From Acidimicrobiia bacterium (GTDB lineage: Bacteria; Actinomycetota; Acidimicrobiia; Spongiisociales; ZC4RG35): a stretch of DNA of 64,000 nucleotides. Numbering within the stretch: the first letter of the stretch is position 1; every line of letters begins with the position of its first letter. Below, piece by piece: positions 704 to 22,669 of this stretch. Both the position numbers and the translations under genes were made by a program. The stretch is from the NCBI GenBank assembly GCA_963665765.1, contig OY762464.1, forward strand, positions 1,513,741-1,577,740. The letters are read 5' to 3'. The notes under the pieces were generated by a model that was given only the letters and a program-made list of their open reading frames with translations, made no database searches and was not told the DNA's origin.

Positions 704-2218
704 TCAGCGGCGTCGGACGGGATATCGGCGCCGGAAGAGAGCGTGAAGGAACTCGGCGGCCAGGGCGGCTATCGCCAGTACTTGTACCCAATCTCCCAGA
801 CGGACGTAAAGAGTGGGTCCTTGGTCTGCCGAGCGGGTCTGCACCTGGTCGATCAGAAGGGCCTCTTCGGCGAGGGCAGTGCGGGGGCCGGTCTCGCCGG
901 TGGAGGCTATGAAGGTGGACCGGCCGGTGACGGCCGTGTGGAGCAGAGGCATACCCAGTTCTGCTGCTCTCATGCGGGTGATGCCGATGAACTGATCGGA
1001 GGCGACTGAGTAGGGATAGCTTTCTTGGCTGGTCGCCAGGATCAGCAAGCCCGCTCCTGCTTGAGCGTTCTCCCTGCCATAGCGAGCGAACGATCCCTCG
1101 AACGAGATCACCGAGCCGAACCTCCCGAATCCCAGATCCCAGAGAACCGGCCCCTCTCCCCGCAGCATGTCCCGACCGGGTAGGTCATCGTGCAGTTCTT
1201 CCACCCATTTGAACCAGGATCGGGCGGGGATGTATTCGCCGTAGGGAACCGGGTGCTGCTTGTGGTATTCGCCAACGTATTCACCCTGTTGGTCGAACAC
1301 CACGTTGGCGTTCACCCAGTGGGTGTCATCGAGAGGCCGGTCGCCCCCGGCCAGCAGCACGGCGCCGATGCGAGCGGCCTCGGCGCCCATCGTCTGTCCC
1401 ACCTCGGGAGCGTTGACGGGATCGGCAGTCCACGAACCGGTCGATCCTTCCGGCCATATCACCAGGTCTACGCTGCCGGGCGCCAAGGTACGGGTGATCC
1501 TCAGGTGGTTCTGATAGGTTTGATAGCGCTCGTTGGCGCAATGCTCGCCCGGGCAGGGATTGTTGCCTTGGACCACCGCCACCCGCACGATCTCTCCCTC
1601 GACCTGCGGCGCCCACCAGGCGCCGCTCACCAACAGCGCCGCCATCGCCGCGGCCACGCCGGCGGCCCAGGGAAGGCCCCCCGCTCGGCGAAGGTGGCGG
1701 GTGGCCAGCAGGACCAACACGGCGGCGGCGGCTACCGACACCACTGTCCATCCCGAGGCGCCGATCCAGCGCGCCGCGCTCCGGGGCGGACTCCAGGCGC
1801 TCCAGGCGTAGCCGGACGATCCCCACTCCAATCCTCCCAAGGGCCATCGTACTCTGAGCCATTCCATCAGAGCCCATCCGCCTACCGCCCTGACCAACCA
1901 GCGCGAGGCTGACACAGCGGAGGCTCGGGAAAGGAAAAGGGCATAGAGAGCCGGCCAGAGCGAGAGCACCACCACCGGTGGCAGGAGCGCGATCAGTCCC
2001 AGTTCCCCGAGCCACGTCATCAAAAGCCCGAAAAAGGAAACGCCGAACAGAAAACCCGCCAGGCAGGCCGATGGGGCGGTTACGAGCCGTCTGGTTTGGA
2101 ATAGGAACAGCCCAATGGCGGGAACCGTTATCCACCACCATCCCCAGGGAGGGAAAGCCATCGACAGGGCGGCTCCGGCCACCGCCGAGAGCAGGATGGG
2201 AGCAAATCGCTTGGTCAA
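704..2218 (-). CDS. lnt: Apolipoprotein N-acyltransferase
   Basis: 504-aa ORF with multiple N-terminal TM helices and a C-terminal CN-hydrolase domain (VAVVQGN...IWPEGS...). Confidence 0.8.
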   Translation of the reverse strand: MTKRFAPILLSAVAGAALSMAFPPWGWWWITVPAIGLFLFQTRRLVTAPSACLAGFLFGVSFFGLLMTWLGELGLIALLPPVVVLSLWPALYALFLSRASAVSASRWLVRAVGGWALMEWLRVRWPLGGLEWGSSGYAWSAWSPPRSAARWIGASGWTVVSVAAAAVLVLLATRHLRRAGGLPWAAGVAAAMAALLVSGAWWAPQVEGEIVRVAVVQGNNPCPGEHCANERYQTYQNHLRITRTLAPGSVDLVIWPEGSTGSWTADPVNAPEVGQTMGAEAARIGAVLLAGGDRPLDDTHWVNANVVFDQQGEYVGEYHKQHPVPYGEYIPARSWFKWVEELHDDLPGRDMLRGEGPVLWDLGFGRFGSVISFEGSFARYGRENAQAGAGLLILATSQESYPYSVASDQFIGITRMRAAELGMPLLHTAVTGRSTFIASTGETGPRTALAEEALLIDQVQTRSADQGPTLYVRLGDWVQVLAIAALAAEFLHALFRRRYPVRRR

Positions 2219-3090: not shown

Positions 3091-5064
3091 ATGGAAGAGT
3101 CCACCGAGGATATGTTCGACTACCCGGCGATCACCGTTGCGTTGGTGGAAGAAATCACCTCCGGCGCCATCTCGGAAGGGGAGCGGCTGAGGGCGGCGGT
3201 GCTGGATGCCGGCCCGAAGCGTTCCTATGACGATACCCTAGCCTCCCTCGAGGAGGTGGGGGAAGTGTTCGGTCGGGCCCACGGCCAGGCGGGGTTCATG
3301 GGTTACGTACACCCCGACGAGGAACTCAGAGCGGCCGGCCGCGCCGCGGGCGAACAACTCTCCAAATGGCTAACGGAACTGGCTTTCCACCCCGGGCTCT
3401 ACCAGGCGGTGGAAGAATTCTCCGCCACCGATGAGGCTGCCCGGTTGTCGGGAGAACGCGCCCGGCTGCTGGAGTTTGTCCGTCGGGACCTGCGGCGCGC
3501 CGGTCATCACCTTCCGGCCCGATCCCAAGAGAGGGTGAAGGAACTCACCGGGCGGCTGATAGAACTGGGGGTCGCCTTCGCTCAGAACATCGCGGAGCAC
3601 GAGGATGCCCTGGAGGTGACCAGGGAGGAACTGGAAGGCCTGCCCGAGGCCTATATCGATTCCCTGCCGCTCTCCCCGGACTGCGAGCGCCTGCTGCGGG
3701 TGACCATGGACTACCCTCACGTCACGCCATTCATGGAGAACGCCCGACGCCGTGACCTGCGGCGCCGCCTGATGAGCAAGTTCAACAGCCGGGCCGTTGG
3801 GACCAACCGACCGCTGCTTGAAGAGGCGGTGGCGATTCGCTCCGAGATAGCGGCGCTGTTTGGCGAGCCATCTTGGGCGCACCATCGCCTTTCTGACCGG
3901 ATGGCCAAGACGCCGGAGCGGGTGGAGGAGTTTTACGAACTGCTGCTGGCCCCGCTTCAGGAGGCCGGCCGCCGGGAAATAGAGCGCATCGCCGAAATGC
4001 TGGAGGCCGATGGGGAGGAACGACCCGTGCAGGTTTGGGATTGGCGGTATTACGACAACCGGATCCGCCGGACCGAATACGGGGTGGACCAGATGGAGGT
4101 GGCGGGGTATTTTCCGCTGGAGCAGGTGGTGGAGGGGATGCTGGACCTGACCGGGGAGGTGTTCGGGCTGCGGTACCGTCCGGCGAGCGCGCCGGTCTGG
4201 CATGAGGACGTGGTCACCTATGCCGTCTTCGACCGGGCATCGGGAGAGCGGCTCGCCCATTTCCACATGGATCTGTTTCCCCGGGAGGGAAAGTTCAGCC
4301 ATGCGGCCGCCTTTACGCTTCGGGGAGGCCGTCGCCTCCCCGACGGGTCCTATCAGGCGCCTGTGTCGGCCATCGTTGCCAACTTCACTCCGCCGTCCGG
4401 CGATGCCCCTGCCCTTTTGCAGCATTCGGAGGTGCTTACGCTGTTTCACGAGTTTGGCCACATTCTGCATCAGGTTCTGACCCGCACGGAATTGGGACGG
4501 TTTTCGGGAACCAGCACGGAAGGCGATTTTGTGGAGGCGCCCAGTCAAATCATGGAGAACTGGACCTGGCAGCCCGAGGTGCTGGCGAGGTTTGCTTTCC
4601 ACTACCGGACCGGCGAGCCTCTGCCCACCGAGGTGTTGGAGAAGTTGTCGGGGGCACAACTGCTGAATGTCGCCATCTCCAAACTGCGACAGGCCGGCTT
4701 CGGGTTGCTGGACATGGCCCTGCACGGCCCCGATCCTGACCCGGACCTCGACGAGATTCTGGCCGCCACCACCGAGGTTGCCCTGTTTCCCCAGCAGGAG
4801 GGGACCTTTTTTCCGGCCAGCTTCGGTCATCTCCTGGCCGGATATGACGCCGGTTATTACGGCTATCTGTGGTCGGAGGTCTACGGGGACGACATGTGGA
4901 GGCGGTTTGAGGAGGAAGGGGTCACCAACCCGGGGGTGGGGATGGAATATCGTCGGGAGGTGCTGGAGAAGGGCGGTTCCCGGGATGCGATCGAGACGCT
5001 CCGCGCCTTTCTGGGTCGAGAACCCGACAACCGGGCTTTCCTCCGCAAATTGGGAATCGAGTAG
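3091..5064 (+). CDS. M3 family zinc oligoendopeptidase (Dcp/thimet-like)
   Basis: 657 aa with HEFGH zinc-binding motif and M3 peptidase architecture. Confidence 0.8.
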   Translation: MEESTEDMFDYPAITVALVEEITSGAISEGERLRAAVLDAGPKRSYDDTLASLEEVGEVFGRAHGQAGFMGYVHPDEELRAAGRAAGEQLSKWLTELAFHPGLYQAVEEFSATDEAARLSGERARLLEFVRRDLRRAGHHLPARSQERVKELTGRLIELGVAFAQNIAEHEDALEVTREELEGLPEAYIDSLPLSPDCERLLRVTMDYPHVTPFMENARRRDLRRRLMSKFNSRAVGTNRPLLEEAVAIRSEIAALFGEPSWAHHRLSDRMAKTPERVEEFYELLLAPLQEAGRREIERIAEMLEADGEERPVQVWDWRYYDNRIRRTEYGVDQMEVAGYFPLEQVVEGMLDLTGEVFGLRYRPASAPVWHEDVVTYAVFDRASGERLAHFHMDLFPREGKFSHAAAFTLRGGRRLPDGSYQAPVSAIVANFTPPSGDAPALLQHSEVLTLFHEFGHILHQVLTRTELGRFSGTSTEGDFVEAPSQIMENWTWQPEVLARFAFHYRTGEPLPTEVLEKLSGAQLLNVAISKLRQAGFGLLDMALHGPDPDPDLDEILAATTEVALFPQQEGTFFPASFGHLLAGYDAGYYGYLWSEVYGDDMWRRFEEEGVTNPGVGMEYRREVLEKGGSRDAIETLRAFLGREPDNRAFLRKLGIE

Positions 5065-5961: not shown

Positions 5962-5990
5962 GTTGACAAATGGCTACGGCGCCCGTACAC
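5962..5990 (+). promoter_or_regulatory. Near-consensus sigma70-type promoter (-35 TTGACA, 17-nt spacer, -10 TACACT)
   Basis: Read directly in an AT-rich patch (about 5925-5995) just upstream of the ROK regulator gene; coordinates are +/-1 nt. Confidence 0.5.
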
Positions 5991-6045
5991 TGCCATTTTG
6001 GGTAAGCGAAAGGTTTGGCCTGTGATCGAAGAGTCGGGAGCCGGC

Positions 6046-7227
6046 ATGCTTCGCCTGAGAAATGGCCAGGCGGTTTTCGACCAGTTCGTTGAGGCCGGCC
6101 GACAGACGATCTCCCGAGCTGAGATTGCCCGAATGACCGGATTGTCCAAGCCCACCGTGAACGCTTTGGTGTCAGACCTGGAAGAAGCGGGGGTGGTGAG
6201 GCAGGTGCCTTTGGTTCAGTCCCAAGGGAGGATCGGTCGGCCGGCGGCGGCTTATCAACTGGTGCCCGACGCGGCGGTGGTGGTGGGCATCGACATGGGC
6301 GCCACCAAGACGCTGGTGGGAGTGGCTGACCTGTTGGGCGAGGTCATAGCCGGCGAGCGGGTTCCAACCCCATCGCACGCGGAAGCGGCCGTGGAGTCCG
6401 TGGTGGCGGCGGTGGGGCGCCTTCTGGAGAGTCTCGGCCACCCCAACCCCCGTTTGGAAAGCGCCTGCCTGGGCGTTCCGGGCGTTTACCGGCCCTCCTT
6501 GGACAGGGTGGAGATGGCGCCCAACCTGCCCGGATTCGGAGATCTGGCCATCCGGGCCGAACTGTCCAACCGACTGGGCGTTTCGGTGACCATCGAGAAC
6601 GACGTCAATTTGGCCGCGGTGGGGGAGGCGAACGCCATGGCCACCGAGGGAGTTGCGGATTTTGCGGCGGTTTCGATCGGAACCGGAATCGGTATGGGGA
6701 TGGTGTTGGATGGAGAGTTGTACCGGGGCGCCCATGGAGCGGCCGGCGAGATCGGATCGGTGAAGCTACCTCGGTTGGGAGGCGAGGTATTCCACGCTCT
6801 CACGCTGGAAGAGGTGGCGTCCGCGCCCGCCATTCGCAAGTTGTTCCATCGGGCGGTGGAGGCCGGGCATCCCACCGGCCTGGAAGGCGACTTCGATGTT
6901 CCCGCCATCTTCGCGGCTTCTGTCCAAGGCGATCAGGCCGCGGTGGCGGCCCTCCGGATCGCGTCCGATGCGGTGGCGTTTGCCGTTTCCTACTTCTGCT
7001 GGGTAAACGACCCCGCTCTGGTGGTGTTCGGAGGAGGGGTGGGCGCCAATCCCATTTTCGTTGATGCGGTGAGGGCGCGAATAGGCCGATACCTGACCGT
7101 GGTTCCGGAAATGGTTCCTTCGACAATCGGTGGACAAGCGGCGTTCTTGGGAGCGGTCTCCACCGCCCTGGCCTCGGTGCGGAGGGGTTTGGTCATCCAA
7201 AGACTGGGACGAAGGAACCAGAGATGA
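6046..7227 (+). CDS. ROK family transcriptional regulator / sugar kinase-like protein
   Basis: N-terminal HTH (ISRAEIARMTGLSKPTV) plus ROK sugar-kinase fold (VGIDMGATKT...GAAGEIG). ATG at 6046 preceded by a GGGAG Shine-Dalgarno motif; the ORF track starts at 5998, which would coincide with the predicted TSS. Confidence 0.75.
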   Translation: MLRLRNGQAVFDQFVEAGRQTISRAEIARMTGLSKPTVNALVSDLEEAGVVRQVPLVQSQGRIGRPAAAYQLVPDAAVVVGIDMGATKTLVGVADLLGEVIAGERVPTPSHAEAAVESVVAAVGRLLESLGHPNPRLESACLGVPGVYRPSLDRVEMAPNLPGFGDLAIRAELSNRLGVSVTIENDVNLAAVGEANAMATEGVADFAAVSIGTGIGMGMVLDGELYRGAHGAAGEIGSVKLPRLGGEVFHALTLEEVASAPAIRKLFHRAVEAGHPTGLEGDFDVPAIFAASVQGDQAAVAALRIASDAVAFAVSYFCWVNDPALVVFGGGVGANPIFVDAVRARIGRYLTVVPEMVPSTIGGQAAFLGAVSTALASVRRGLVIQRLGRRNQR

Positions 7228-8483
7228 CCGAGGCAGCGGCCGTCATTGCCGCCGCGGTCGATGCGGACTCGCTGGTTGATCTGGCCCAGGATGCGGTGCG
7301 GATTCCCAGCATCACTCCCAACGAAGGCGCTTTCGCCGAATGGGTTGCCGGCCGGCTTGCCGAGGGTGGCTGGAACGAGGTCGATCTGGTGGAGGTAGCG
7401 CGCGGCCGCCCGAATGTGTATGCCCGGACCGGCGCCGGAGAGTGTGGCGCCCGATCCTTGGTGCTGGCCGGACATCTGGACACGGTCCATGCCGATGACT
7501 GGACACAGGAGTGGGCGGGGAGCGATCGAGCCGACCCGTTCGCCGGACAGGTTATCGACGGAGAGATCTGGGCCAGGGGGGTGACCGATCAGAAGGGAGG
7601 AATCTGCTCCATCATCGAAGTGGTTCGGGCGATCCGTCGGGCCGGATATCGCCTGCGGGGATCGGCGATCGGATTATTCGTGTGCGATGAGGAGTCCGGT
7701 CAACCGGGAAGCGGGGTTTCTTTGGGAATGCGGGCCGCCGTCAAGCATCTCTGGGAAGGCTCAGGGCGCCCGCCCGATTTTGCGATCTACACAGAGCCGA
7801 GCACCGGCGCCATCTACTCCGCTCAGATGGGGTTCCTGATAGCCGACATCACGTTGTTGGGGAAGTCGGCCTACTTTGGCAGGCCTGAACTGGGAGTGGA
7901 CGCCCTCAAAGCAGGGCATGCCCTGCTGAGCGCTCTGTGGGAGCACAACGGGAAACTGTCCTCGGGAAAGCCCCATCCTCTTCTGGGAGAGCGGTTTCTG
8001 CTGGTGACCACGGTGGGGTCGGGCGGCAACATCGCGGTGCCTGGAAAGTTCGAACTGTCGCTCATCCAAAAGTTTCTGCCGGGGGATGACCTCGATGCGG
8101 CATCGTCGGCCCTGCGGGACATCGCCGCCCAAGTTGCGGAAGAGCACGGGGTTTCTTCCGAGGTGATCTTCTCCGCTCCGAGGGATCACTCGGTGGGGGG
8201 TACCCCCGATGAGATATCGGTCGACCATCCGGGCGTTCGTGAACTGGCCGGCGCCATCGAGGCGACCACCGGCCAACCGGCGAGAATCGAAGGAGCGCCC
8301 TATTGGTCGGAGAAACCGTTGTTGCGGTCGGCGGGTGTGCCCGGCGTCTATTTCGCCGCCGGTGACATCGGCGCCTGCCATACCCCTTTTGAGCGATTGT
8401 CCATTGAAGAGTTCGTTTCTTTGACCCGTACCTTGGCGTACTTTGCGGCGTCGTGGTGCGGAGTCGAAAAGCCCACAACCTAG
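7224..8483 (+). CDS. M20 family metallopeptidase (ArgE/DapE-like)
   Basis: AGHLDTVHADDW ... GVTDQKGG motifs typical of the M20 deacylase/peptidase family; its start overlaps the ROK stop. Confidence 0.7.
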   Translation: MTEAAAVIAAAVDADSLVDLAQDAVRIPSITPNEGAFAEWVAGRLAEGGWNEVDLVEVARGRPNVYARTGAGECGARSLVLAGHLDTVHADDWTQEWAGSDRADPFAGQVIDGEIWARGVTDQKGGICSIIEVVRAIRRAGYRLRGSAIGLFVCDEESGQPGSGVSLGMRAAVKHLWEGSGRPPDFAIYTEPSTGAIYSAQMGFLIADITLLGKSAYFGRPELGVDALKAGHALLSALWEHNGKLSSGKPHPLLGERFLLVTTVGSGGNIAVPGKFELSLIQKFLPGDDLDAASSALRDIAAQVAEEHGVSSEVIFSAPRDHSVGGTPDEISVDHPGVRELAGAIEATTGQPARIEGAPYWSEKPLLRSAGVPGVYFAAGDIGACHTPFERLSIEEFVSLTRTLAYFAASWCGVEKPTT

Positions 8484-8491
8484 GAGGAACC

Positions 8492-10696
8492 ATGAAAGGA
8501 ACCGTGAAAATTCAACGTAACAGATCCGCAAGGTGGCTCATTACCGGTCTGGTGGCAGTGCTCAGCCTGGTCGCGGCGGCTTGCGGCGGCGATGCCGAGG
8601 AGGAAACGACCACTACCCGGGCCACCGCCGAAGCCACCACTACCCAAGCGCCTGCCACGACGGAAGCTCCTCCAGAGCCTGTGGCGCCGGTTACTCAGGG
8701 GCCGGGTGGTGAGGAGGCTACTGCGTCGGGTGAGGTTGTTTTGAGTGGTGATGAGATTGCGCGGGTGCGGTCTGGGGGGTACACGGCGGCTTTGTTGTGG
8801 CATACGGCGGGTGCTTTTACCGATGCGGTGAGTCAGGGTGCTCGGGATGCTTTCGCGGAGTTGGGTGTTGAGGTGATTGCTGAGACGAATGCTCAGTTTG
8901 ATGCTGCTCAGCAGGCCAATGATGTGGAGACTGTGTTGGCGCAGGATCCTGACATCATTGTTAGTTTGGTGATTGATCCGGTGTCGGGTGCGGAGGCGTT
9001 TCGTCCGGCGGTCGAGGCCGGGGTGCAGTTGGTGTTTTTGAGTAATGTGCCCGAGGGCTATGTGCACGGTGTTGACTATGTGGGGGTGGTTACCGATGAT
9101 TTGGCGGCGATGGGGATGGCGGCTGCGGATCTGTTGGCGGATGCTTTGGGTGGTGTGGGGAAGGTGGGTTTCATCTTCCATGATGCTGCCTATTACGTGA
9201 CTAATCAGCGTGATCAGGCGTTCAAGACTTGGATTGAGCAGCGTTATCCGGGGATCGAGATCGTTTCTGAGCAGGGGTTGGCTGATCCGGCTCGGGCTGA
9301 GGAGATCGCGGCGGCGTTGTTGACGCGTAATCCTGATCTGGATGGTATTTATGCGCCGTGGTCGGCTGGTCCGGCTGATGGGGTGTTGGCTGCTTTGCGG
9401 GCGGCGGGTGCTTCGGATGTGGCGGTGGTGACGTTGGATCTGGACACCAATGTGTCGTTGGACTTGGTGGAAGGCGGGAACATTGTTGGTATCGCGGCGG
9501 ACGAGGCCTATGCGTTGGGACGGACCATGGCTTTGGAGGGTGCCTATGGGCTGGTTGGCAAGCAGGCGCCGCCGTTCACGGTGGTGCCGGCTATCGCGGT
9601 GACCGCTGACAATATCGTGGAGGCCTACCGGCAGTCACTAGCCACCGACCCACCCGCAGAAATCATGACAGCACTCGGCGAGTCCGTGCCTGTGGCGCCG
9701 GTTACTCAGGGGCCGGGTGGTGAGGAGGCTACTGCGTCGGGTGAGGTTGTTTTGAGTGGTGATGAGATTGCGCGGGTGCGGTCTGGGGGGTACACGGCGG
9801 CTTTGTTGTGGCATACGGCGGGTGCTTTTACCGATGCGGTGAGTCAGGGTGCTCGGGATGCTTTCGCGGAGTTGGGTGTTGAGGTGATTGCTGAGACGAA
9901 TGCTCAGTTTGATGCTGCTCAGCAGGCCAATGATGTGGAGACTGTGTTGGCGCAGGATCCTGACATCATTGTTAGTTTGGTGATTGATCCGGTGTCGGGT
10001 GCGGAGGCGTTTCGTCCGGCGGTCGAGGCCGGGGTGCAGTTGGTGTTTTTGAGTAATGTGCCCGAGGGCTATGTGCACGGTGTTGACTATGTGGGGGTGG
10101 TTACCGATGATTTGGCGGCGATGGGGATGGCGGCTGCGGATCTGTTGGCGGATGCTTTGGGTGGTGTGGGGAAGGTGGGTTTCATCTTCCATGATGCTGC
10201 CTATTACGTGACTAATCAGCGTGATCAGGCGTTCAAGACTTGGATTGAGCAGCGTTATCCGGGGATCGAGATCGTTTCTGAGCAGGGGTTGGCTGATCCG
10301 GCTCGGGCTGAGGAGATCGCGGCGGCGTTGTTGACGCGTAATCCTGATCTGGATGGTATTTATGCGCCGTGGTCGGCTGGTCCGGCTGATGGGGTGTTGG
10401 CTGCTTTGCGGGCGGCGGGTGCTTCGGATGTGGCGGTGGTGACGTTGGATCTGGACACCAATGTGTCGTTGGACTTGGTGGAAGGCGGGAACATTGTTGG
10501 TATCGCGGCGGACGAGGCCTATGCGTTGGGACGGACCATGGCTTTGGAGGGTGCCTATGGGCTGGTTGGCAAGCAGGCGCCGCCGTTCACGGTGGTGCCG
10601 GCTATCGCGGTGACCGCTGACAATATCGTGGAGGCCTACCGGCAGTCACTAGCCACCGACCCACCCGCAGAAATCATGACAGCACTCGGCGGATAA
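8492..10696 (+). CDS. Lipoprotein made of two tandem type-I periplasmic substrate-binding domains (ribose/sugar-binding-like ABC SBP)
   Basis: GGAGGA Shine-Dalgarno motif then ATG 8492; signal peptide with lipobox (LVAAACGG). Two consecutive 337-aa PBP-type-I domains that are 100% identical at DNA level. Confidence 0.75.
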   Translation: MKGTVKIQRNRSARWLITGLVAVLSLVAAACGGDAEEETTTTRATAEATTTQAPATTEAPPEPVAPVTQGPGGEEATASGEVVLSGDEIARVRSGGYTAALLWHTAGAFTDAVSQGARDAFAELGVEVIAETNAQFDAAQQANDVETVLAQDPDIIVSLVIDPVSGAEAFRPAVEAGVQLVFLSNVPEGYVHGVDYVGVVTDDLAAMGMAAADLLADALGGVGKVGFIFHDAAYYVTNQRDQAFKTWIEQRYPGIEIVSEQGLADPARAEEIAAALLTRNPDLDGIYAPWSAGPADGVLAALRAAGASDVAVVTLDLDTNVSLDLVEGGNIVGIAADEAYALGRTMALEGAYGLVGKQAPPFTVVPAIAVTADNIVEAYRQSLATDPPAEIMTALGESVPVAPVTQGPGGEEATASGEVVLSGDEIARVRSGGYTAALLWHTAGAFTDAVSQGARDAFAELGVEVIAETNAQFDAAQQANDVETVLAQDPDIIVSLVIDPVSGAEAFRPAVEAGVQLVFLSNVPEGYVHGVDYVGVVTDDLAAMGMAAADLLADALGGVGKVGFIFHDAAYYVTNQRDQAFKTWIEQRYPGIEIVSEQGLADPARAEEIAAALLTRNPDLDGIYAPWSAGPADGVLAALRAAGASDVAVVTLDLDTNVSLDLVEGGNIVGIAADEAYALGRTMALEGAYGLVGKQAPPFTVVPAIAVTADNIVEAYRQSLATDPPAEIMTALGG
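8677..10691 (+). repeat. Perfect tandem duplication: 1,004 bp x2, period 1,011 bp (8677-9680 and 9688-10691)
   Basis: Direct comparison of the two copies at their starts, middles and ends shows identical sequence. The junction carries a 7-nt linker, agtccgt. Confidence 0.85.
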
Positions 10697-10739: not shown

Positions 10740-11753
10740 ATGAGAGTCCCTGTCCTGGCCGGCGCGGTAGTCCGGTTGAAGCGGGCATGGACCGAGCAGA
10801 GCGAAGACGGCGGGTTTCGACGATACGTGGTCTATTTGGCCTTCGTTTCGATTCTCGCCGTTTTCGCTCTGATGCTGTGGGACGATGGTTTTCTGAGTTG
10901 GTCGAATCTGCTCAACATCGGTCGGCAGGCTGCTCCGATCGCAGTCATGGCGGCGGGCATGGCCTTCGCCCTGGCCTCGGCGGAGATAGATCTTTCTGTC
11001 GGATCAACCGTGGCGCTCTCGTCGCTGGTGGCCGCTACGGTGGTTGGCCAATACGGGTTCTTGCTCGGAGCACTGGCCGCGGTGGTGGTGGGAGCGTTGG
11101 TGGGGTGGGTGAACGGCCTGATCACCGTCAAGGTGCGAATCCCGTCTTTTCTGGTGACCTTGGGGACGCTGGGCATCATCAGTGGCATCGCCCGCAACAT
11201 GAACAATCTGCAGTCCATGCCGATCAGAAACGATACTTTTTCCGCCTTGTTCGGCGCCGGGTCACTGGGTCCCATCTCCTCGTTGGTGATATGGACGGCC
11301 ATAGTCTTGGCTATGGGCCATTTTGCGCTGCACCATCTTCGTTGGGGAAGGCATGTGCTGGCGACGGGCGCCAACCGGGCCTCAGCCAAAGCGGCCGGTC
11401 TCAATACCGACCGAATCCGGATCAGCGCCTTGATGGTGAGTTCGGTGGCGGCTTCCTTCGCCGGAGTGTTGCTGGCCGGGCGGCTGGCCATCGGTCGGCA
11501 TGATCTGGGGGAGAACGACCTGCTGACTGTGATCGCCGCGGTGGTGATCGGCGGCACCAGTCTGTTCGGCGGACGCGCTTCGGTCGCCGGCGCGGTGATG
11601 GGCGCCTTGATCATGGCGATGCTCAACAACGGGTTGATTCTCATGGGCCTGGAGGTGGCGGACCAGTTGATCGCCCGGGGCCTCATCATCATTGTGGCGG
11701 TGGCGCTCAGCATGAGGGCGCCATCGGAAAGCGCGGGTGACGATGTTCCTTGA
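10740..11753 (+). CDS. ABC transporter permease (RbsC/AraH-type, about 10 TM)
   Basis: Hydrophobic 337-aa ORF with the conserved permease loop motif; directly downstream of the substrate-binding-protein gene. Confidence 0.75.
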   Translation: MRVPVLAGAVVRLKRAWTEQSEDGGFRRYVVYLAFVSILAVFALMLWDDGFLSWSNLLNIGRQAAPIAVMAAGMAFALASAEIDLSVGSTVALSSLVAATVVGQYGFLLGALAAVVVGALVGWVNGLITVKVRIPSFLVTLGTLGIISGIARNMNNLQSMPIRNDTFSALFGAGSLGPISSLVIWTAIVLAMGHFALHHLRWGRHVLATGANRASAKAAGLNTDRIRISALMVSSVAASFAGVLLAGRLAIGRHDLGENDLLTVIAAVVIGGTSLFGGRASVAGAVMGALIMAMLNNGLILMGLEVADQLIARGLIIIVAVALSMRAPSESAGDDVP

Positions 11754-12945
11754 ATCTCTGGTCAGAAGGAACCGAGCCTTTCTGGAGGCCGCAGTGCAGC
11801 TTCACCAGGAAAACCGGATTCCAGCCAACAGCTATGTCCTGGATTTGGACACCTTGGAGTCAAACGCTCGCCACATGACCACCGAGGCTCACCGTTTGGG
11901 CTTGACCGTGTATGCCATGAGCAAGCAGGTCGGGCGGGCGCCGGGCGCCCTGAGAGCAATCACGCAGGGTGGGGCAGATGGATATGTGGCGGTTGACATG
12001 GGATGCGCTCGGCCCATCGCCGCCAACGGACACGCCATCGGCAACCTCGGGCATCTGGTGCAGATACCGCGAGCCGAAGCGGCGGAAGCCGCGGCCTTGG
12101 GTCCGGAGTATTGGACGCTCTTTTCTCGGAACAAAGCCGTGGAGGCGTCACGAGCCGTGGCCGCCTCAGGAGGCAGGCAAAAGGTTTTGCTGAGAATCTG
12201 GGAACACGGCGATATCTTCTATCCGGGACATGAGGGGGGATTTCACACAGATGAGCTTTGCCAAGCGATCGACTTTGTCAACGGGCTGGAGGGATTGCGA
12301 TTCGCCGGACTCACCACTTTTCCGGCCCTTTTGTACGACGCCGCGGCGAAAAAGGTGAATCCCACGACCAATGTCGGAACTCTGGCCCGGGGAGTGGAAC
12401 TTGCTCTCGGCCACCTGGGAACGGCCTTTCCCATTGAGGTGAATGCCCCCGGGACAACCTCGACGGGGGTGTTGGATATGTTGGCCGAGATGGGCGCCAC
12501 GCAAGTGGAGCCGGGGCACGGACTCACCGGCACCACCCCGCTGCATGCCACAAGAGAGCTTCCCGAACGTCCGGCGGTGCTCTACCTGACTGAGGTGGCC
12601 CATGTGCATCAAGGCGTTCCGTTGTGTTTTGGCGGGGGATTCTATGTGGATCCGGTGTTCGAACCGTATCCAACCAAGGTGGTGGTGGCGGCCGGCCCCG
12701 AGCAGGTGGACGGAGGGCTCGTGCCGATCGACATGCCCGATCCGGCCGGAATCGATTACTACGCCCGCCTCCATCCGGAAGGGCGAGCTTTGCAGGAAGG
12801 CGACACCGTCATTGCCGGTTTCCGCATCCAAGCTTTCGTCACCCGGTCTCTGGTGGTGGGCGTGGCCGGCGTAGCCGCTTCGCAACCGGTTGTGACCGGG
12901 ATCTGGAATGTGGAAGGTGTCCCGGTGGGCTGGGGCGGCCGATGA
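11737..12945 (+). CDS. PLP-dependent alanine-racemase-fold protein (YhfX-like putative amino-acid racemase)
   Basis: 402 aa with an N-terminal alanine racemase-like TIM-barrel signature (VYAMSKQ...) embedded between permease and ATPase genes, overlapping both. Confidence 0.5.
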   Translation: MTMFLESLVRRNRAFLEAAVQLHQENRIPANSYVLDLDTLESNARHMTTEAHRLGLTVYAMSKQVGRAPGALRAITQGGADGYVAVDMGCARPIAANGHAIGNLGHLVQIPRAEAAEAAALGPEYWTLFSRNKAVEASRAVAASGGRQKVLLRIWEHGDIFYPGHEGGFHTDELCQAIDFVNGLEGLRFAGLTTFPALLYDAAAKKVNPTTNVGTLARGVELALGHLGTAFPIEVNAPGTTSTGVLDMLAEMGATQVEPGHGLTGTTPLHATRELPERPAVLYLTEVAHVHQGVPLCFGGGFYVDPVFEPYPTKVVVAAGPEQVDGGLVPIDMPDPAGIDYYARLHPEGRALQEGDTVIAGFRIQAFVTRSLVVGVAGVAASQPVVTGIWNVEGVPVGWGGR

Positions 12946-13700
12946 CCGCCCCAGCCCTGTCGGTTAGCGATATGTCCAAGTCCTTTCGCGCCGTGCAGGC
13001 GTTGGATGGTGTGTCTTTGAACATCCACCGAGGTCGAGTTACGGGTCTTTTGGGGGACAACGGCGCCGGAAAATCCACTTTGGTCAAATGTATCGCGGGG
13101 ATCTATCAGCCTGACGGAGGAACCATCAGCATCGATGGCGCGGTTCGCCGGATCTCCTCCCCGGATGTGGCTCGCCGACTCGGAGTGGAGACGGTACATC
13201 AGGACCTTTCGCTGATCGACAGCCTGAACGTAGTGGAGAATTTGTTTTTGAATCGGGAGTACACCCGGGGAGGCCGTCTCGGCGCCCGGATGGGATTTCT
13301 GAACAAGCGGAGAATGCATCGAGAGGGCCAAGCGACCCTGGCGAGACTGGATATTGCCATCCCCTCTCTGCGCAGGCCCGTTGGTCTGCTTTCGGGGGGT
13401 CAACGCCAAGCCATCGCCATTGGCCGGGCGGTGGCATGGGGACAACGGATAGTGTTGTTGGACGAACCGGCGGCAGCCTTAGGGGTGGAACAGGCGCAGA
13501 GGGTGGTTGACTTAATTCTCGCTCTTCGTGAGGCCGGGGTGGCGGTCTTGTTGATTACCCACAACATGGACCGCGTGGCGGCAGTGTGTGACAACGCCGT
13601 CATCCTGCGACAGGGCCGCAAAGCTGCCGAAGTGGAGATGGATCAGGTGACCAAGGATGACTTGGTGGGGTTCATCACCGGCGCCAAGACCGGTGGCTGA
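12942..13700 (+). CDS. ABC transporter ATP-binding protein (single, half-size NBD)
   Basis: Walker A GDNGAGKST, signature LSGGQRQ, Walker B LLDEP. ATG overlaps the upstream stop (ATGA). Confidence 0.85.
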   Translation: MTAPALSVSDMSKSFRAVQALDGVSLNIHRGRVTGLLGDNGAGKSTLVKCIAGIYQPDGGTISIDGAVRRISSPDVARRLGVETVHQDLSLIDSLNVVENLFLNREYTRGGRLGARMGFLNKRRMHREGQATLARLDIAIPSLRRPVGLLSGGQRQAIAIGRAVAWGQRIVLLDEPAAALGVEQAQRVVDLILALREAGVAVLLITHNMDRVAAVCDNAVILRQGRKAAEVEMDQVTKDDLVGFITGAKTGG

Positions 13701-13800: not shown

Positions 13801-14676
13801 TTAGCTGCTCGGTCTGGTGGTAACGGGCGCCCCGGTGGTGGTCGTGGTGGCTTGACTGGTGGTGGTTGTGGTGGCGGGTGCCTCGGTGGTGGTTGTGGTG
13901 GCGGGCGCCCGGGTGGTGGCGGTGGTGGCGGGCGCCCGGGTGGTCGTGGTAGTAGCAGGCGCGGCAGGAGCAGTGACGGTCAGGTCCCGGCTGACGATCA
14001 GGGAGGCTATCTCGTCGTCTCCGATGTACTCCGCGATAATCTCGGCGATGCCCTGGGTGAATACCCCGAACGCGGCCACCATGCCCGCTTGCGCGGCGCG
14101 GCGCTGTTCCCCGGCATCAGTCGATCGCAGGCCTTCCAGCATCTCCGCCGCCGTTACGGCGATCTGGCCGACCGCAGAGGCGACGGTCAGATGTTTCTCC
14201 GGGTACCGGCCGGTCGGAGGGGGTTGAACCAGGTCGAAATCGGCCTGGGCGGTTTGCAGGTTCTCTACGGCCGCCTCCAAATCCTCCTCGGTTTCCGAAT
14301 AAGTGGCCTCGGTTTCCGACCGATTGTCCCAGTCGTTGCTGATCGCGCTTATCTGATCCACCAATCGGCTGAAAGCCACTTCGTGGGCGAGGAGGCTTTT
14401 GAGAAAGTCCTGAACCACCTCGGTCGGAAAGGCGGCGCCGGTGGTTGTCTGGGTGGTGGCGGCGGCGGTGGTGACGGTGGTCTCCGGCGGTGAAGTGACG
14501 GTGGTTGTCTGGGTGGTGGGTGACCGAGGAGCGATGCTGGTTGTCGATGCGGTAGTGTCGACTGCCTCCTCCGCGTCGGAGGTGGCCGGGGGGGCCTCAA
14601 CCGGGTCGAGCAGGCACGAGGAGCCGCCCAAAAAAATCATGGAAAGAACCAGGAGCGCAATCGCGACTCTACGCAT
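13801..14676 (-). CDS. Secreted lipoprotein with Thr/Pro-rich low-complexity regions (hypothetical)
   Basis: Signal peptide plus lipobox (LGGSSC), TTTT/PATT repeats at both ends, and a central domain shared with the paralog at 15084-16007. Confidence 0.5.
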   Translation of the reverse strand: MRRVAIALLVLSMIFLGGSSCLLDPVEAPPATSDAEEAVDTTASTTSIAPRSPTTQTTTVTSPPETTVTTAAATTQTTTGAAFPTEVVQDFLKSLLAHEVAFSRLVDQISAISNDWDNRSETEATYSETEEDLEAAVENLQTAQADFDLVQPPPTGRYPEKHLTVASAVGQIAVTAAEMLEGLRSTDAGEQRRAAQAGMVAAFGVFTQGIAEIIAEYIGDDEIASLIVSRDLTVTAPAAPATTTTTRAPATTATTRAPATTTTTEAPATTTTTSQATTTTTGAPVTTRPSS

Positions 14677-15083
14677 GCTCGGCGCCCAGGGGATACCGAC
14701 CCCGAGGACGGGAGGCTGGGCCGCCATCGCCGAGGGGGTCTTTGGTGAATTCAAGAGAGGTCTTCATCAGGTGGAAATATACCCGCTGTCCGCCGCTAGA
14801 TGAGGTATTGATGGGGATGCCCACGCGCTTTATGTATTCATCCCTTCGAATCTCCGCTTGGCCGATGCGCCGGGAAATGTGCTTTTGCCTACCGAGGTCT
14901 CGGGCTTGGATCGGGATTCTGTAATAAACGTATCCCAGATCATCACTCTCGACAAGGCTGATCTGATCCAACCAAAGACGCGGGCGGATCCGGCACTGCG
15001 GTTGGTGGACAACGGGCTCTCGTTGGTTTTGGGCTTTTCGGGGAAGCTGTGAGGGTTTTCGCCGGCCCGATGACGTCCGTGTC

Positions 15084-16007
15084 TCAGGGCAAGGTTTCGC
15101 AAGCCACCCGGTTGCCGTTGGTATCCATCAGCGCCACGTCGCCGTAGAAGGGAAAGTAGGCGTCGAACCACTCTTGGGCTTCGGCCTGGGTGGAGAAGTC
15201 ACTGCAGTTTTTGGTGTTGCCCGGATTGGGGGGCGCCTCGGCGGCGACCGTGGTCGGAACAGTTTCCGGAACGTCCGTCACCGGAGGGGGAGCGAAGGTT
15301 GGGCCGGCGGCCAGCAACGCCTCTCCCTCCTCTCCGATGACCGCCGCCACCTGCGCAATCACTTCTCCCAAGAGATCGAAGGCGGTCAAGAATCCCACCA
15401 CCGCGGCTTGGCGAGCCTGGCCGGTGTCGGTGGAACGTAACCCGTCGAGCATCTCCTGGGAGGTATCTGCCATGATGGCCACCGCCGCGGCGGCGGTACG
15501 GTGCTCCTGCCCGAGCACGATCTCGGCCGGGGGTTCTATCAGGCCGAAAAAGTCTTGGAGACTCAGGGCGCGCCCGGCGGCGGCCTCCAAGGCGGATGCG
15601 GTGTCGGAGAAGGAGACACCTGTCCGGGAACGATCGTCCCAGTCGTCGTTGATGGCTCCGACGCTCTCCGCCAACTCGGAGAAACCGGCCTCGGTCGACA
15701 GCAGTTGCTCGAGGTAGCGGAGCGCGCTTCCCACCGAAGGGTCGGTGGTGGTGGTCGCAGCCGTGGTGGTGGTCGTTTCGGGAAGGGCGGCGGCGGTGGT
15801 GGGCGAGGGGCGGTCGGCGCCGGCGGTCGGCGACGGGGCAATGGCGGCGGGCACGGTGATAGTTGGGCTGGGGGATAGGGATTCTTCGGACTCGAAGAGC
15901 GCGCAGGACGAGCCGCTCGCCGCAATGGCCAGCAAAATGGCCACGGGCACCCAAGAAACCCGGCGCGCCCCGGGTCTTGGGCGGAAGGGTTTACGCCGCA
16001 CCGGCAC
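15084..16007 (-). CDS. Secreted lipoprotein paralog with a C-terminal Excalibur-like calcium-binding domain
   Basis: Lipobox ASGSSC. C-terminal NCSDFSTQAEAQEWFDAYFPFYGDVALMDTNGNRVACE matches the Excalibur DxDxDGxxCE-type motif. Central domain is homologous to 13801-14676. Confidence 0.5.
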   Translation of the reverse strand: MPVRRKPFRPRPGARRVSWVPVAILLAIAASGSSCALFESEESLSPSPTITVPAAIAPSPTAGADRPSPTTAAALPETTTTTAATTTTDPSVGSALRYLEQLLSTEAGFSELAESVGAINDDWDDRSRTGVSFSDTASALEAAAGRALSLQDFFGLIEPPAEIVLGQEHRTAAAAVAIMADTSQEMLDGLRSTDTGQARQAAVVGFLTAFDLLGEVIAQVAAVIGEEGEALLAAGPTFAPPPVTDVPETVPTTVAAEAPPNPGNTKNCSDFSTQAEAQEWFDAYFPFYGDVALMDTNGNRVACETLP

Positions 16008-18689: not shown

Positions 18690-19640
18690 TCAGCGGTAGC
18701 CGCCGCCCCGCCGAAGGCTGTCCAGGGTAACGGCGATGATCAGGATGGCGCCCCGCACCACCGATTGCCAGTAGATCTGCACCTGGAGCAGGATCAGGCC
18801 GTTCTGCACGACTCCGATGATCAGCAGTCCCAGGAGAGTCCCCAGCAAGCCTCCCCTACCTCCGCTCAAAGCGATCCCACCCAGAAGTACGGCGGCGATG
18901 ATGTCCAACTCTGCTCCGTTCAAAGCGCTCGGCAGCGCCGTGCCGCTCTGGGATGTGAGCATCAGGCCGGCCAGCCCTGCCAGACAGGCTTGGACCACAT
19001 ATGTCCAGCCTCGCAGGCGGTCAACCCTGATGCCGACATTGCGGCAGGCCTCGCTGTTGCCGCCGACGGCGTAGAGGTGACTGCCCGCCACGGTAAATCG
19101 CATGAAGAACATGCCCAATACCACCACCGCCAGGAACAACCAAACGGTGATGGGGGCGCCCAGCCAGGAACCCCTTCCCAGGTTGCTCCAAGCGTTGACC
19201 CCGACCACGATGTTGTCGCCACCGGTGGACACGAAGGCCAAGCCTCGATAGAAGAGCAGGGTTCCCAGGGTGGCGATAATCGGGTTGATCCGGAACTTGA
19301 CTATCAGCAGGGCGTTGAACGATCCCAGCACTCCCGCGGCCAGTATGCCCGCCACTCCGACCACCACGCTGTTGACATCCAGAGATATCAAGCTGGCGGT
19401 GACCATGCCGGCCACCGCCGCCACCGCCGCCATGGACAGGTCCAAACCCCCGGTGATCATGACAACGGTCAGGCCGATGGCGATCAGGCCCCTGATGGAG
19501 ATCGCCTGGCCGATGTTGATGAAATTGCGGGTGGTGAAGAAGAACTCCGATTGCCAGCTGAATAACGCGATCATCAGGAGCAGCGTGATGAACAGACCGA
19601 TCAGGGTCCAGTTGTCCTGTTTTTTGAAAGCCGAGATCAT
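18690..19640 (-). CDS. ABC transporter permease (RbsC/AraH-type), paralog of 10740-11753
   Basis: Hydrophobic multi-TM ORF; its ATG overlaps the upstream ATPase stop (ATGA). Confidence 0.75.
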   Translation of the reverse strand: MISAFKKQDNWTLIGLFITLLLMIALFSWQSEFFFTTRNFINIGQAISIRGLIAIGLTVVMITGGLDLSMAAVAAVAGMVTASLISLDVNSVVVGVAGILAAGVLGSFNALLIVKFRINPIIATLGTLLFYRGLAFVSTGGDNIVVGVNAWSNLGRGSWLGAPITVWLFLAVVVLGMFFMRFTVAGSHLYAVGGNSEACRNVGIRVDRLRGWTYVVQACLAGLAGLMLTSQSGTALPSALNGAELDIIAAVLLGGIALSGGRGGLLGTLLGLLIIGVVQNGLILLQVQIYWQSVVRGAILIIAVTLDSLRRGGGYR

Positions 19641-20410
19641 TGGTCTGCGCCGTTGTGGATTGACGGTGGCATAACGCCGGTTATCCATCCGATGATGTGG
19701 TTGGTGGTGATCGTCTTGGACGGCGCGTACGCCCAGAGTTTCCCTTGTCTCAACACGGCGATCCGGTCGGTGATGTCCAGGATGTCGCTCAGGTCGTGGG
19801 TGATCACCACCACCGCCTTGCCCTGTTTGCGCATGCCGGTGATGAGCTGATGCACCTGCTGAGTCTGTTCCACTCCCAGAGCCGCGGTGGGCTCGTCCAG
19901 CAACAGGATGTTTCCGCCCATCGCGATCGCTCGGGATAAGGCTACGGCTTGGCGCTGTCCTCCGGACAGCAACTCGACATCCACTTTCTGGGAAGGCAAC
20001 CGGATATTGAGATCATCCAGCATGACCGTGGCGTCGCGTTCCATCTTGCGGCGATCCAAAAAGAGCCCGAAGCGGCGGGGTTCCCGGCCCAGGTAGATGT
20101 TGTGAGAGACCGGCCGGGTCTCCACCAGGGCCAGATCCTGATAGACGGTGGCTATTCCCAAGGCCTGGGCCTCGGCCGGATGGCTGATGGTGACCGGCTT
20201 GCCTTGGTACTCGAAAGAACCCTGGTCGGGGCGGTGGTTGCCGGACAGGATCTTGATCAGGGTGGACTTGCCGGCCCCGTTGTCGCCCAGCAGGCCGAGC
20301 ACCTCTCCTGCATACAGGTTCAAGCTGACATCGACCAGAGCGTGAACCTGCCCGAATGCCTTGGAGACATTCGACATCGCCATCAACGGTTGTTGGTTAT
20401 GCGTGTTCAT
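19637..20410 (-). CDS. ABC transporter ATP-binding protein (half-size), paralog of 12942-13700
   Basis: GDNGAGKSTL, LSGGQRQ and LLDEPT motifs. Confidence 0.85.
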   Translation of the reverse strand: MNTHNQQPLMAMSNVSKAFGQVHALVDVSLNLYAGEVLGLLGDNGAGKSTLIKILSGNHRPDQGSFEYQGKPVTISHPAEAQALGIATVYQDLALVETRPVSHNIYLGREPRRFGLFLDRRKMERDATVMLDDLNIRLPSQKVDVELLSGGQRQAVALSRAIAMGGNILLLDEPTAALGVEQTQQVHQLITGMRKQGKAVVVITHDLSDILDITDRIAVLRQGKLWAYAPSKTITTNHIIGWITGVMPPSIHNGADQ

Positions 20411-20494: not shown

Positions 20495-22518
20495 CTATCC
20501 AGGATAGAGATCGTGGACGTTTTCTCGGGTTACCGGGGAGACCGACGGGATCAGCCGTTCGGGGACGGTATTCCCTTCGATCAGGTCCACAATGGCCGGC
20601 ACCAGGTACTGGCCGTAGCGCTCGGGGAAGTAGGAGATGGTGGCTTTGAACACCGACTCGTCGTCGGAGCGTCCCCGCAGATCTACCAGCGCCTCGTCAG
20701 AGGCGCCCAGGCTGGCTGCGGCAGCGTGGCCCAAGAAGCCACTTTGCTCCAACGCCAATGCGCAGTCCACGCCGGGTTGGTCGCTGTGTCCGAAGCAGAG
20801 CACGTGCTTGGCGTCGGGGTTGCCGGTGGCCCAGGTGGTTACGTTGGGAAGGGTGTCGGTGAGACCCTCGGTGGGAATGTCGTGGACGTTCTCGTCGGGA
20901 ATGGCAAAGGTCTCCCGAACGCCGTCTCGGGCGCCGTCGGCGCGGGCCTTGTGGACGGGCACGTCCGGGGTCCAGATCAACAGCAGTTCGGTCTCTTCCG
21001 GCGCCCAACCCTGTTCCTGGGCGAAGGCGGCCAGGAAGCGTCCGGCCTCCAACGCGGCGTTGTAGTTGTCGGGGCCGAAGGCCACGCATCCGGGGTGGGG
21101 TCCGTCGTAGGAGACGCAGGGGATCCCGGCGTCGTGGAAGATCCCGGAGATGAGTTCTTCGGTGCCGGCGATCCAGTTGGCGAAGATCACTCCGTCAACT
21201 TCCTGGGTGACCAGCAGGTTGGAGCACTCCACGGTCCTTTCCTGGTCGTAGGCGTTGTCGCAGTAGACGATCTCCACGCCCATCTCGGCTGCGATGGCGT
21301 TGATGTTGTCGGTCACGCTGTCGGTGAACGGAATACCCGAAAGCCCGTCACCGTAACCTAGCCTCCAGGGTTGCTCGGCTGCCCTGATCACGGCCTCGTA
21401 TTCGTCGCCGGAACCCATGGCTTCTTCGTCCAGTTCGCCTCCGGGGTACAAGTCCTCGACGTTGTCGCGGGTGACTGGTTCAACCGAGGGGATCAGCCTT
21501 TCGGGTATGTCGGTGCGTCCCTCGATGAGGTCGACTATGACCGGCACCAGGTACTGGCCGTAGCGCTCGGGGAAGTAGGAGATGGTGGCTTTGAACACCG
21601 ACTCGTCGTCGGAGCGTTCGCGCAGTTCGACCAGCGCTTCGGTGGAGGCGCCGGTCCCTACCGCGGCGGCATTGCCCAGGAACCCGTTCTGTTCCAGCGC
21701 CAGACCGCAGTCCACGCCGGGTTGGTCGCTGTGTCCGAAGCAGAGCACGTGCTTGGCGTCGGGGTTGCCGATCGACCAGGTGGTTACGTTGGGAAGGGTG
21801 TCGGTGAGACCCTCGGTGGGGATGTCGTGGATGTTGTCATCAGGAATGTCGAACAACTCCCGAACGCCGTCGGTGGCGCCATCGGCCCGGGCCTTGTGGA
21901 CGGGCACGTCCGGGGTCCAGATCAACAGCAGTTCGGTGTCGGCGGGATCCCATCCTTGGTCCATTGCGTATTGGGCCAGGTAGCGACCGGCGGCCACGCC
22001 GGCTTCGTAGTTGTCGGGGCCGAAGGCCACGCATCCGGGGTGGGGTCCGTCGTAGGAGACGCAGGGGATCCCGGCGTCGTGGAAGATCCCGGAGATGAGT
22101 TCTTCGGTGCCGGCGATCCAGTTGGCGAAGATCACTCCGTCAACTTCCTGGGTGACCAGCAGGTTGGAGCACTCCACGGTCCTTTCCTGGTCGTAGGCGT
22201 TGTCGCAGTAGACGATCTCCACGCCCATCTCGGCTGCGATGGCGTTGATGTTGTCGGTCACGCTGTCGGTGAACGGAATACCCGAAAGCCCGTCACCATA
22301 ACCAATCTTCCAAACTTCTGTGGCCGGACGGATCACGGCCTCGTAGGGACCGCTGGGCATCGCCGGCTCTTCTTCCACCACGGTTTCCTCGGGGGTTTCT
22401 TCAACCGCGGCGGCGGTGGTTACGGGGGCGTCGGTGGGGGCGGGCGCCTCGTCGTCCTCTCCGCAGGCTGCCACCAACAGGGCGACAACCGCAATTCCAA
22501 CTATCAATTTGCGTGGCA
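20495..22518 (-). CDS. Lipoprotein with two tandem type-I periplasmic substrate-binding domains (ABC SBP)
   Basis: Start MPRKLIVGIAVVALLVAACGE (lipobox). Two roughly 315-aa repeats with high amino-acid identity, including a 290-bp core that is identical at DNA level (21062-21352 vs 22007-22297). Confidence 0.7.
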
Positions 22519-22669
22519 TTCTCAACCTTTCTCTTATGCATCTAAGTGGCGAGGAATCCTTCGCCAACCGGGACGTACCCCACGACCGGCAGGTCGGTAT
22601 AAAGCGGAGGTGCCCGGTAAAAAATATCCTAACCCCACCCGCCGGAAGAGGGGGGAGCCTCAACCGACA

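Follow-up and report, generated by a model that had tools for sequence, protein, structure and literature searches.

A substrate-binding lipoprotein gene of Acidimicrobiia with two nucleotide-identical domains, very probably an old doubling kept uniform by concerted evolution

The doubled gene and its operon

The DNA analysed here, referred to below as the window, is a stretch of 64,000 nucleotides (nt) from an Acidimicrobiia bacterium (GenBank assembly GCA_963665765.1, contig OY762464.1, positions 1,513,741 to 1,577,740 of the forward strand). It carries, at 8492..10696 on the + strand, a gene for a substrate-binding lipoprotein of 734 amino acids (aa) with two tandem domains, in which the 1004 nt at 8677-9680 recur at 9688-10691 with 0 mismatches. 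Comparison with related genomes makes it very probable that this gene is an old in-frame doubling, the copies of which have been kept identical by recombination (concerted evolution) while they diverged between species.

The period of the repeat, from start to start, is 1011 nt or 337 codons. Between the copies, both of which lie on the + strand, stands the junction AGTCCGT (9681-9687, + strand), read within the codons GAG TCC GTG (Glu-Ser-Val) and unlike both the 7 nt 5' of copy 1 (CTCCAGA) and the 7 nt 3' of copy 2 (GATAACT). No N bases occur in the window, and an exact repeat of 1004 nt is not a product of chance. Both copies fall within a single open reading frame (ORF) of the + strand, 8453/8492-10696. 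Copy 2 stops 2 nt short of the stop codon (10694-10696), so that the gene ends in ...ALG-G-stop. Position, period and identity of the copies are exactly as an earlier note on this DNA had claimed. The product had been described there as an in-frame lipoprotein with two identical type I periplasmic binding protein (PBP) domains, a description borne out by the ORF, the Pfam matches and the N-terminus. The antisense ORFs reported as duplicated (8480-9181 and 9638-10192) do share their sequence, a trivial consequence of the identity of the DNA copies.

Translation likely starts at the ATG at 8492, preceded on its 5' side by the ribosome-binding site AGGAGG. Judged by eye, the N-terminus, MKGTVKIQRNRSARWLITGLVAVLSLVAAAC, is built like a lipoprotein-type signal up to Cys31, with a basic N-region, a hydrophobic stretch and the motif ...LVAAAC(31)GG. 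The lipobox cysteine (codon 8582-8584) is nearly invariant in the alignment of homologues, and it is followed until ~8676 by a tether rich in Thr, Ala, Pro and Glu. Copy 1 then comprises a linker of ~30 residues and a complete Peripla_BP_4 domain, and copy 2 repeats both. Peripla_BP_4 (PF13407) matches two stretches of the 734-aa product, with 236 bits against a cut-off of 35.1. The closest solved structures are binding proteins of sugar ATP-binding cassette (ABC) transporters, first 3g1w (5e-20), then ribose, arabinose and CbpA proteins. A few kilobases upstream lies a gene for the apolipoprotein N-acyltransferase Lnt (LNT_N and CN_hydrolase domains; 704-2218, minus strand), which fits lipoprotein maturation.

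The gene belongs to an operon that presumably forms one transcription unit. Directly 5' of its first gene stands a promoter-like site, TTGACA-17-TACACT (5963..5991, + strand), with 10/12 consensus matches, a consensus match only. All genes of the operon lie on the + strand. The first (5998..7227) encodes a NagC/Mlc-like regulator of the ROK family with an N-terminal winged-helix helix-turn-helix (HTH), recognised by a ROK match of 141 bits and by HTH domains; its position is kept in seven related loci with a doubled gene, L001-L007. It is followed by a gene for an ArgE/DapE-like deacylase of the M20 family (7224..8483; Pfam and NCBIfam matches), syntenic in all related loci. Beyond the doubled gene come an AraH/RbsC-like ABC permease of the BPD_transp_2 type (10740..11753; profile matches), a YhfX-like protein with an Ala_racemase_N fold according to Pfam, putatively an enzyme dependent on pyridoxal phosphate (11737..12945), and an ABC ATPase of ~253 aa with a single nucleotide-binding domain (NBD; ~12939..13700, start approximate), which matches only the first half of the RbsA, AraG and YtfR profiles.

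Permease and ATPase genes thus adjoin the binding-protein gene, an order that is kept in L001-L007. Taken together, sequence features predict that the doubled lipoprotein is the type I substrate-binding protein of a ribose/arabinose-like ABC importer. All scores against the NCBIfam equivalog models for rhizopine, rhamnose, LsrB, allose and ribose were far under the cut-offs. The half-size ATPase is found in both sugar-type importers of the window (~12939-13700, plus strand, and 19637-20410, minus strand): each is ~255 aa long, has a single NBD and covers positions ~2-240 of ~500 in the RbsA, AraG and YtfR profiles, while ribose-type systems typically have fused ATPases with a double NBD. In L001, as in other relatives, the ATPase gene is followed by a glucosamine-6-phosphate-isomerase-like gene. 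Together with the M20 deacylase and the YhfX-like protein, this neighbour makes amino sugars and sugar-amino-acid conjugates candidate ligands.

Relatives of the doubled gene and a second tandem gene

The DNA set used for comparison consisted of seven doubled genes that were fetched (L001-L007) and of 78 loci (L008-L085) from a scan of one genome per GTDB species. All related loci belong to metagenome-assembled genomes (MAGs) of Acidimicrobiia, often under the name Candidatus Spongiisociaceae, Poriferisodalis or Aldehydirespirator, and sponge or coral samples were the source of many. The Poriferisodalaceae and a clade within the Aldehydirespiratoraceae have been described as sponge-associated (PMC11706023).

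Three kinds of homologue were found. A protein search returned proteins of 725-745 aa with 76-91% identity, each with two identical or nearly identical internal copies, although the proteins differ among themselves. The same search returned single-domain relatives of ~425 aa and ~85% identity. In a third group, of 738-765 aa, the identity between the first and the second domain has dropped to 51-57%. A look-up of the exact 734-aa sequence of the window gave no match.

A complete doubled gene is present in 20 distinct loci, the window and 19 others, always in the same operon and with a conserved order of ROK regulator, M20 deacylase, binding protein, permease, YhfX-like protein and ATPase. The periods are 1008, 1011, 1017 or 1023 nt, every one a multiple of 3. 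The two copies are free of mismatches in 14 loci; they differ at one position in L018, L030 and L033, at 3 in L002, at 13 in L007 and at 85 in L027. Within a genome the copies are 99.7-100% identical in 18/20 loci, while the identity of the unit between genomes is 64-98% at the nucleotide level. Several of the doubled loci lie on megabase (Mb)-scale or chromosome-level contigs. Furthermore, the short-read contigs of L013 and L022 break off a few dozen bases inside copy 2, right after the junction, and L016 has a run of N where copy 1 should be; such breaks and gaps are as expected of a true exact repeat.

Outside this group the architecture was not encountered. A HMMER search with one repeat unit against 1.84 billion cluster representatives gave no tandem double among the 150 best matches, from which the doubled architecture within this family appears to be confined to a narrow clade of Acidimicrobiia. 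Proteins of ~650-690 aa among these 150, matched in their C-terminal half only, were rejected as tandem binding proteins, since they join a LacI-family regulator to a binding protein; others are fusions with an ATPase or a histidine kinase. The fusions of LacI-family repressors with Peripla_BP_4 (P0238, P0257, P0274, P0286 and P0306) are either real or merged gene calls. When metagenome contigs of the Joint Genome Institute (JGI) were scanned for the junction pattern GCACTCGGNGAGTCSGTGCC, 15 matches appeared, none of which encodes the binding protein (tblastn); they are thus chance matches and add no support.

Two long ORFs that had looked like two-domain genes were likewise rejected. The one in L028 (4711-7005), a locus ~97% identical to L002, is a single-domain gene behind a frameshifted M20 gene. 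Its upstream deacylase frame appears disrupted, with a translation that is garbled mid-gene, which may reflect operon decay accompanying repeat collapse. The other, in L077 (5698-8040; also P0090, 706 aa) from an Acidimicrobiales MAG, is a single-domain binding protein in frame with the permease; this ORF of 780 aa is either a real fusion or due to a lost stop codon or sequencing error.

The junction between the copies dates the doubling. The sequence GAG TC(C/G) GTG CC is common to the window, L008, L001, L019, L010, L015 and L017, that is, to seven species, and it is templated by neither flank. An untemplated junction that is common to seven species is inherited. The units of these species differ by ~8-11% in nucleotides. 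Between the window unit and those of L008, L001 and L010 we counted 83-92 substitutions in 975 nt, which corresponds to a synonymous divergence (dS) of 0.30-0.34, with a ratio of nonsynonymous to synonymous divergence (dN/dS) of ~0.11. With the same junction in seven species and a dS of ~0.3 between their units, the duplication is older than the split of these species. Each genome has identical copies, so that every substitution between species stands in both of them.

The edges of the unit point in the same direction. At the 5' edge of L010, L015 and L017, copy 1 has CC(A/T) GTG (Pro-Val) and copy 2 has CCG ATG (Pro-Met), while both copies read Pro-Val in the window and in L008, and Pro-Met in L001 and L019. 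Read from sequence, this pattern indicates conversion tracts of variable length that may run in either direction. In four loci (L004, L018, L020 and L031) the unit follows a Glu codon in both places, 5' of copy 1 and at the junction, so that the ancestral event needed no filler. Probably 336 codons (Glu-x-Pro...Ala-Leu-Gly), up to one codon before the stop, were cleanly duplicated in tandem. Within the 1011-nt period of the window, AGTCCGT is the sole part that was not homogenised. The earlier note had given the junction sequence correctly, but the linker is not the filler of a breakpoint: it is best described, by comparison with these relatives, as the diverged, indel-bearing edge of an older unit that starts at a Glu codon, with GAG kept and 6 nt (TCC GTG) gained. 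A non-templated 7-nt filler of the kind left by non-homologous end joining was rejected, as the relatives show the start of the unit at the Glu codon in both places.

Incomplete homogenisation can be seen in two loci. In L007 a single mismatch falls in the first 780 nt and 12/13 fall in the last 220 nt. In L027, a stretch of 220 nt contains just one of the 85 mismatches. The copies of L027 differ by 84 nt but only by 5 aa (dS 0.39, dN/dS 0.025). Such a low ratio shows purifying selection on both domains, which are thus both functional. To judge from their dS, the separation of the L027 copies is about as old as that of the species that share the junction.

The number of copies also changes over short times. 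In a neighbour-joining tree built from the three flanking genes, loci with one domain are interspersed with loci with two. Pairs of loci whose flanks are ~95-97% identical in nucleotides show a clean difference, with one copy in one locus and two in the other (for example L001/L021, L006/L045 and L002/L028). The single-copy locus L021, on a chromosome-level contig of 2.8 Mb, is nested between L001 and L019. Since these two share the junction, L021 is best read as a collapse. The existence of such close one-copy relatives indicates that collapse is frequent.

The window contains a second gene of this type, on the minus strand at 20495..22519. It encodes a binding lipoprotein of 674 aa with 2 x Peripla_BP_4 and a period of 945 nt, as seen from Pfam and the alignment of the copies, and adjoins its own single-NBD ATPase and permease. 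The two binding proteins are unrelated, with only short, weak BLASTP matches between them (E 0.003). The copies of the second gene (~20560-21399 and 21505-22344) are ~86% identical. They share a tract of 291 nt that is 100% identical (21062-21352 and 22007-22297), and dS is 0.2-0.7 elsewhere. Many orthologues of this gene have copies with identical amino acid sequences, and exact repeats were found in L086 (845 nt, 3220-4064, on a contig labelled 185x) and in L087 (800 nt, 3265-4064), whose protein is 53% identical to that of the window. As the second gene and its orthologues behave alike, the phenomenon is not peculiar to one gene.

Some further features were noted elsewhere in the window. 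An ORF of 912 aa (30274-33012, plus strand), coiled-coil-like and without a Pfam match, contains an internal direct repeat (31827-31898 and 32211-32282, 89% identical, with a spacing of 384 nt or 128 codons). It is preceded by a gene for a calcineurin-like phosphoesterase (28770-29879, plus strand), and the pair may be SbcCD-like. The segment 42878-50789 encodes a Schlafen/AlbA_2-HATPase_c_4 protein and an Eco57I-like N6 DNA methylase, with a lowered guanine-cytosine fraction of 0.54-0.56 at 48-51 kilobases (kb); it may be a defence or restriction-modification islet. Gly/Pro-rich low-complexity tandem repeats with periods of 24-51 nt occur at 13815-13962, 14431-14505 and 15788-15850, inside minus-strand ORFs without Pfam matches (13801-14754 and 15084-16007).

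Origin and upkeep of the identical copies

We propose that one in-frame tandem duplication of ~336 codons, comprising the linker and the whole domain, took place in an ancestor of the sponge- and coral-associated Acidimicrobiia clade. Homologous recombination between the 1-kb direct repeats would since have repeatedly overwritten one copy with the other, through gene conversion, unequal exchange between sister chromosomes, or both, presumably with the help of RecA. The edge nucleotides, that is, the 7-nt junction, would alone have escaped homogenisation. The same recombination would occasionally delete one copy and give rise to single-domain alleles. In bacteria, the frequency of recombination between direct repeats of 1 kb lies orders of magnitude above that of a mutation within 1 kb, and two such repeats 7 nt apart are an ideal substrate for homologous recombination. 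Since recombination is faster than mutation, identity is the expected equilibrium if selection keeps two copies, and deletion is its by-product. Copies would escape once their divergence exceeds what recombination tolerates, a stage that L027 and the group with 51-57% identity between domains may represent.

The marks of concerted evolution are present together: similarity is higher within than between genomes, the duplication is older than the split of the lineages, and mosaic tracts with variable boundaries occur. Ongoing gene conversion had been one of three explanations offered by the earlier note, and it gains support from the old shared junction, the variable tract ends and the mosaics. 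The persistence of two intact copies over a large divergence argues for selection on the doubled protein. By analogy, the benefit would most likely lie in two identical binding sites per lipid anchor, that is, in more substrate captured per transporter with the stoichiometry of the operon unchanged. The dependence on RecA, the selective advantage and the ligand are points that we infer.

Several points weigh against this reading. Many of the related loci come from short-read assemblers, which are able to emit a repeat node twice, and so force identity, or to collapse a repeat into a false single copy; some of the single-copy calls in short-read MAGs may thus be collapsed repeats. For this reason the argument leans on the Mb-scale contigs, the long-read origin of which is taken from contig names and sizes. 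The 1-3 nt differences kept in L002, L018, L030 and L033 show, for their part, that identity of the copies is not imposed by the assembler. The two-copy state of the window itself rests on analogy with its relatives and on its unique in-frame junction. Moreover, other junctions exist, Gly-Met-Ala in L003 and L033, Gly-Ala-Pro-Ala-Ala in L006 and Gly-Val in L005; extra independent duplications are possible in these clades, so that the doubled genes may not all go back to a single origin. Finally, the full-length AlphaFold2 model of the protein (from a 16-sequence alignment) is weak, with a mean predicted local distance difference test (pLDDT) of 64 and a predicted template modelling score (pTM) of 0.42. 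Its layout consists of two repeated alpha/beta domains, an inter-domain linker and an N-terminal tether of low confidence.

Identity could also be renewed in other ways, by cycles of collapse and re-duplication or by the re-acquisition of a doubled allele from relatives through homologous recombination. We consider this unlikely. One- and two-copy states do alternate among relatives at 95-97% identity, and the different junction types of the Aldehydirespirator-like clade and of L005 fit repeated origins. However, collapse destroys the junction, and a re-duplication de novo cannot recreate the same 7-12 nt edge that seven species have. Partial tracts and edge polymorphisms are, moreover, what conversion or unequal exchange predicts. 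If alleles were re-acquired instead, the donor lineage must still have kept its copies homogenised.

An extremely recent duplication, which the earlier note had also offered, would require the doubled genes of the relatives to be independent recent events. The zero divergence in the window, the interspersed single- and double-copy genes in the tree of flanking genes, and the different junctions of distant clades, which allow for more than one origin across the family, are compatible with such a history. It is nevertheless very unlikely and, for the window, refuted by the non-templated junction in seven species whose units differ by ~8-11% (dS ~0.3). The ancestral Pro-Val/Pro-Met edge is retained in three species and resolved oppositely in others. 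In addition, the copies of L027 stand at a dS of 0.39, and those of L007 and L027 are mosaic. A newborn copy would also match over at least the whole period, whereas the exact tract covers 1004 of 1011 nt.

The last of the three explanations, an assembly artefact in which a single-copy gene was written twice or two slightly different strains or copies were merged as identical, is hardly credible: assemblers are known to fail at exact 1-kb tandem repeats, and the short-read scaffolds L005-L007 could have crossed one repeat node twice, but the unique in-frame junction must exist in the reads, no period departs from a multiple of 3, short-read contigs end at the repeat and do not invent it, and the claim is refuted by the same architecture, with a homologous in-frame junction, in 19 other independent assemblies, many of them Mb-scale or chromosome-level and some (L002, L018, L030 and L033) with 1-3 nt differences between the copies. 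An old doubling with copies homogenised by recombination is thus the reading that we retain below.

Known systems and biological meaning

That duplicated sequences evolve in concert through gene conversion or unequal crossing-over is well known in bacteria from tufA/tufB and the ribosomal RNA operons, and nucleotide-identical in-frame repeats occur in surface proteins of Gram-positive bacteria, alpha C and Rib among them. In-frame recombination also takes place among the cagY repeats of Helicobacter pylori (PMC2194252). The doubled gene resembles these systems in that copies within a genome are closer than orthologues, products stay in frame, copy number changes by homologous recombination, and mosaics occur. 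It differs from them in its repeat, the whole, enzyme-sized 336-codon ligand-binding domain of a nutrient-uptake protein, in place of a separate gene or of a short module with a structural or antigenic role. Furthermore, it is present in one or two copies only, and in uncultured sponge symbionts.

Tandem substrate-binding domains as such are found in the ABC importer GlnPQ of Lactococcus lactis and other Gram-positive bacteria (PMC8025302, PMC11331510). There too, as in fused-domain importers such as OpuA, two membrane-tethered binding domains per polypeptide provide more sites per transporter. In GlnPQ, however, the domains are type II PBPs, fused to the permease and unlike in specificity and affinity, whereas the window protein is a free lipoprotein with type I (Peripla_BP_4) domains. 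Being nucleotide-identical, these domains cannot differ in ligand. Its permease is a separate gene, with the stop codon of the doubled gene at 10694-10696 and the permease start at 10740. Among ribose/arabinose-type (CUT2-like) importers, the window system is conventional in having a Peripla_BP_4 protein, a BPD_transp_2 permease (AraH/RbsC) and an ATPase like RbsA, AraG and YtfR; it stands apart in its doubled binding protein and in its half-size ATPase with a single NBD.

Full-text literature searches did not find identical tandem binding-protein lipoproteins, or their concerted evolution, described. Concerted evolution and tandem binding domains are each known, but the literature that was searched seems to hold no account of their combination, across many species and two families.

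The doubled gene therefore offers an unusually clean natural case of concerted evolution inside one bacterial gene, with a 1-kb repeat that stays identical through a dS of 0.3 to >1. All stages are available in public genomes: homogenised copies, part-converted mosaics, escaped second domains and single-copy collapse. The finding also extends tandem binding domains from the permease-fused type II GlnPQ class to free type I lipoproteins of the sugar class. For genomics, it shows that exact intragenic repeats are real and are a systematic cause of broken or collapsed short-read assemblies, so that the binding-protein gene content of symbiont MAGs is likely under-reported. Two identical sites, moreover, allow a direct test of whether doubling the sites per anchor raises uptake.

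A wider reading of these results can be put forward only tentatively. Identical tandem binding domains might be a selected, recombination-driven copy-number device of sponge-symbiont Acidimicrobiia that boosts substrate capture and that evolved at least twice, independently, in unrelated sugar-type importers. Collapse mediated by RecA would then tune uptake at the level of the population, in the manner of a contingency locus. Through homogenisation, both domains would retain the same specificity until one of them escapes and neofunctionalises, as may have happened in the relatives whose domains are 51-57% identical.

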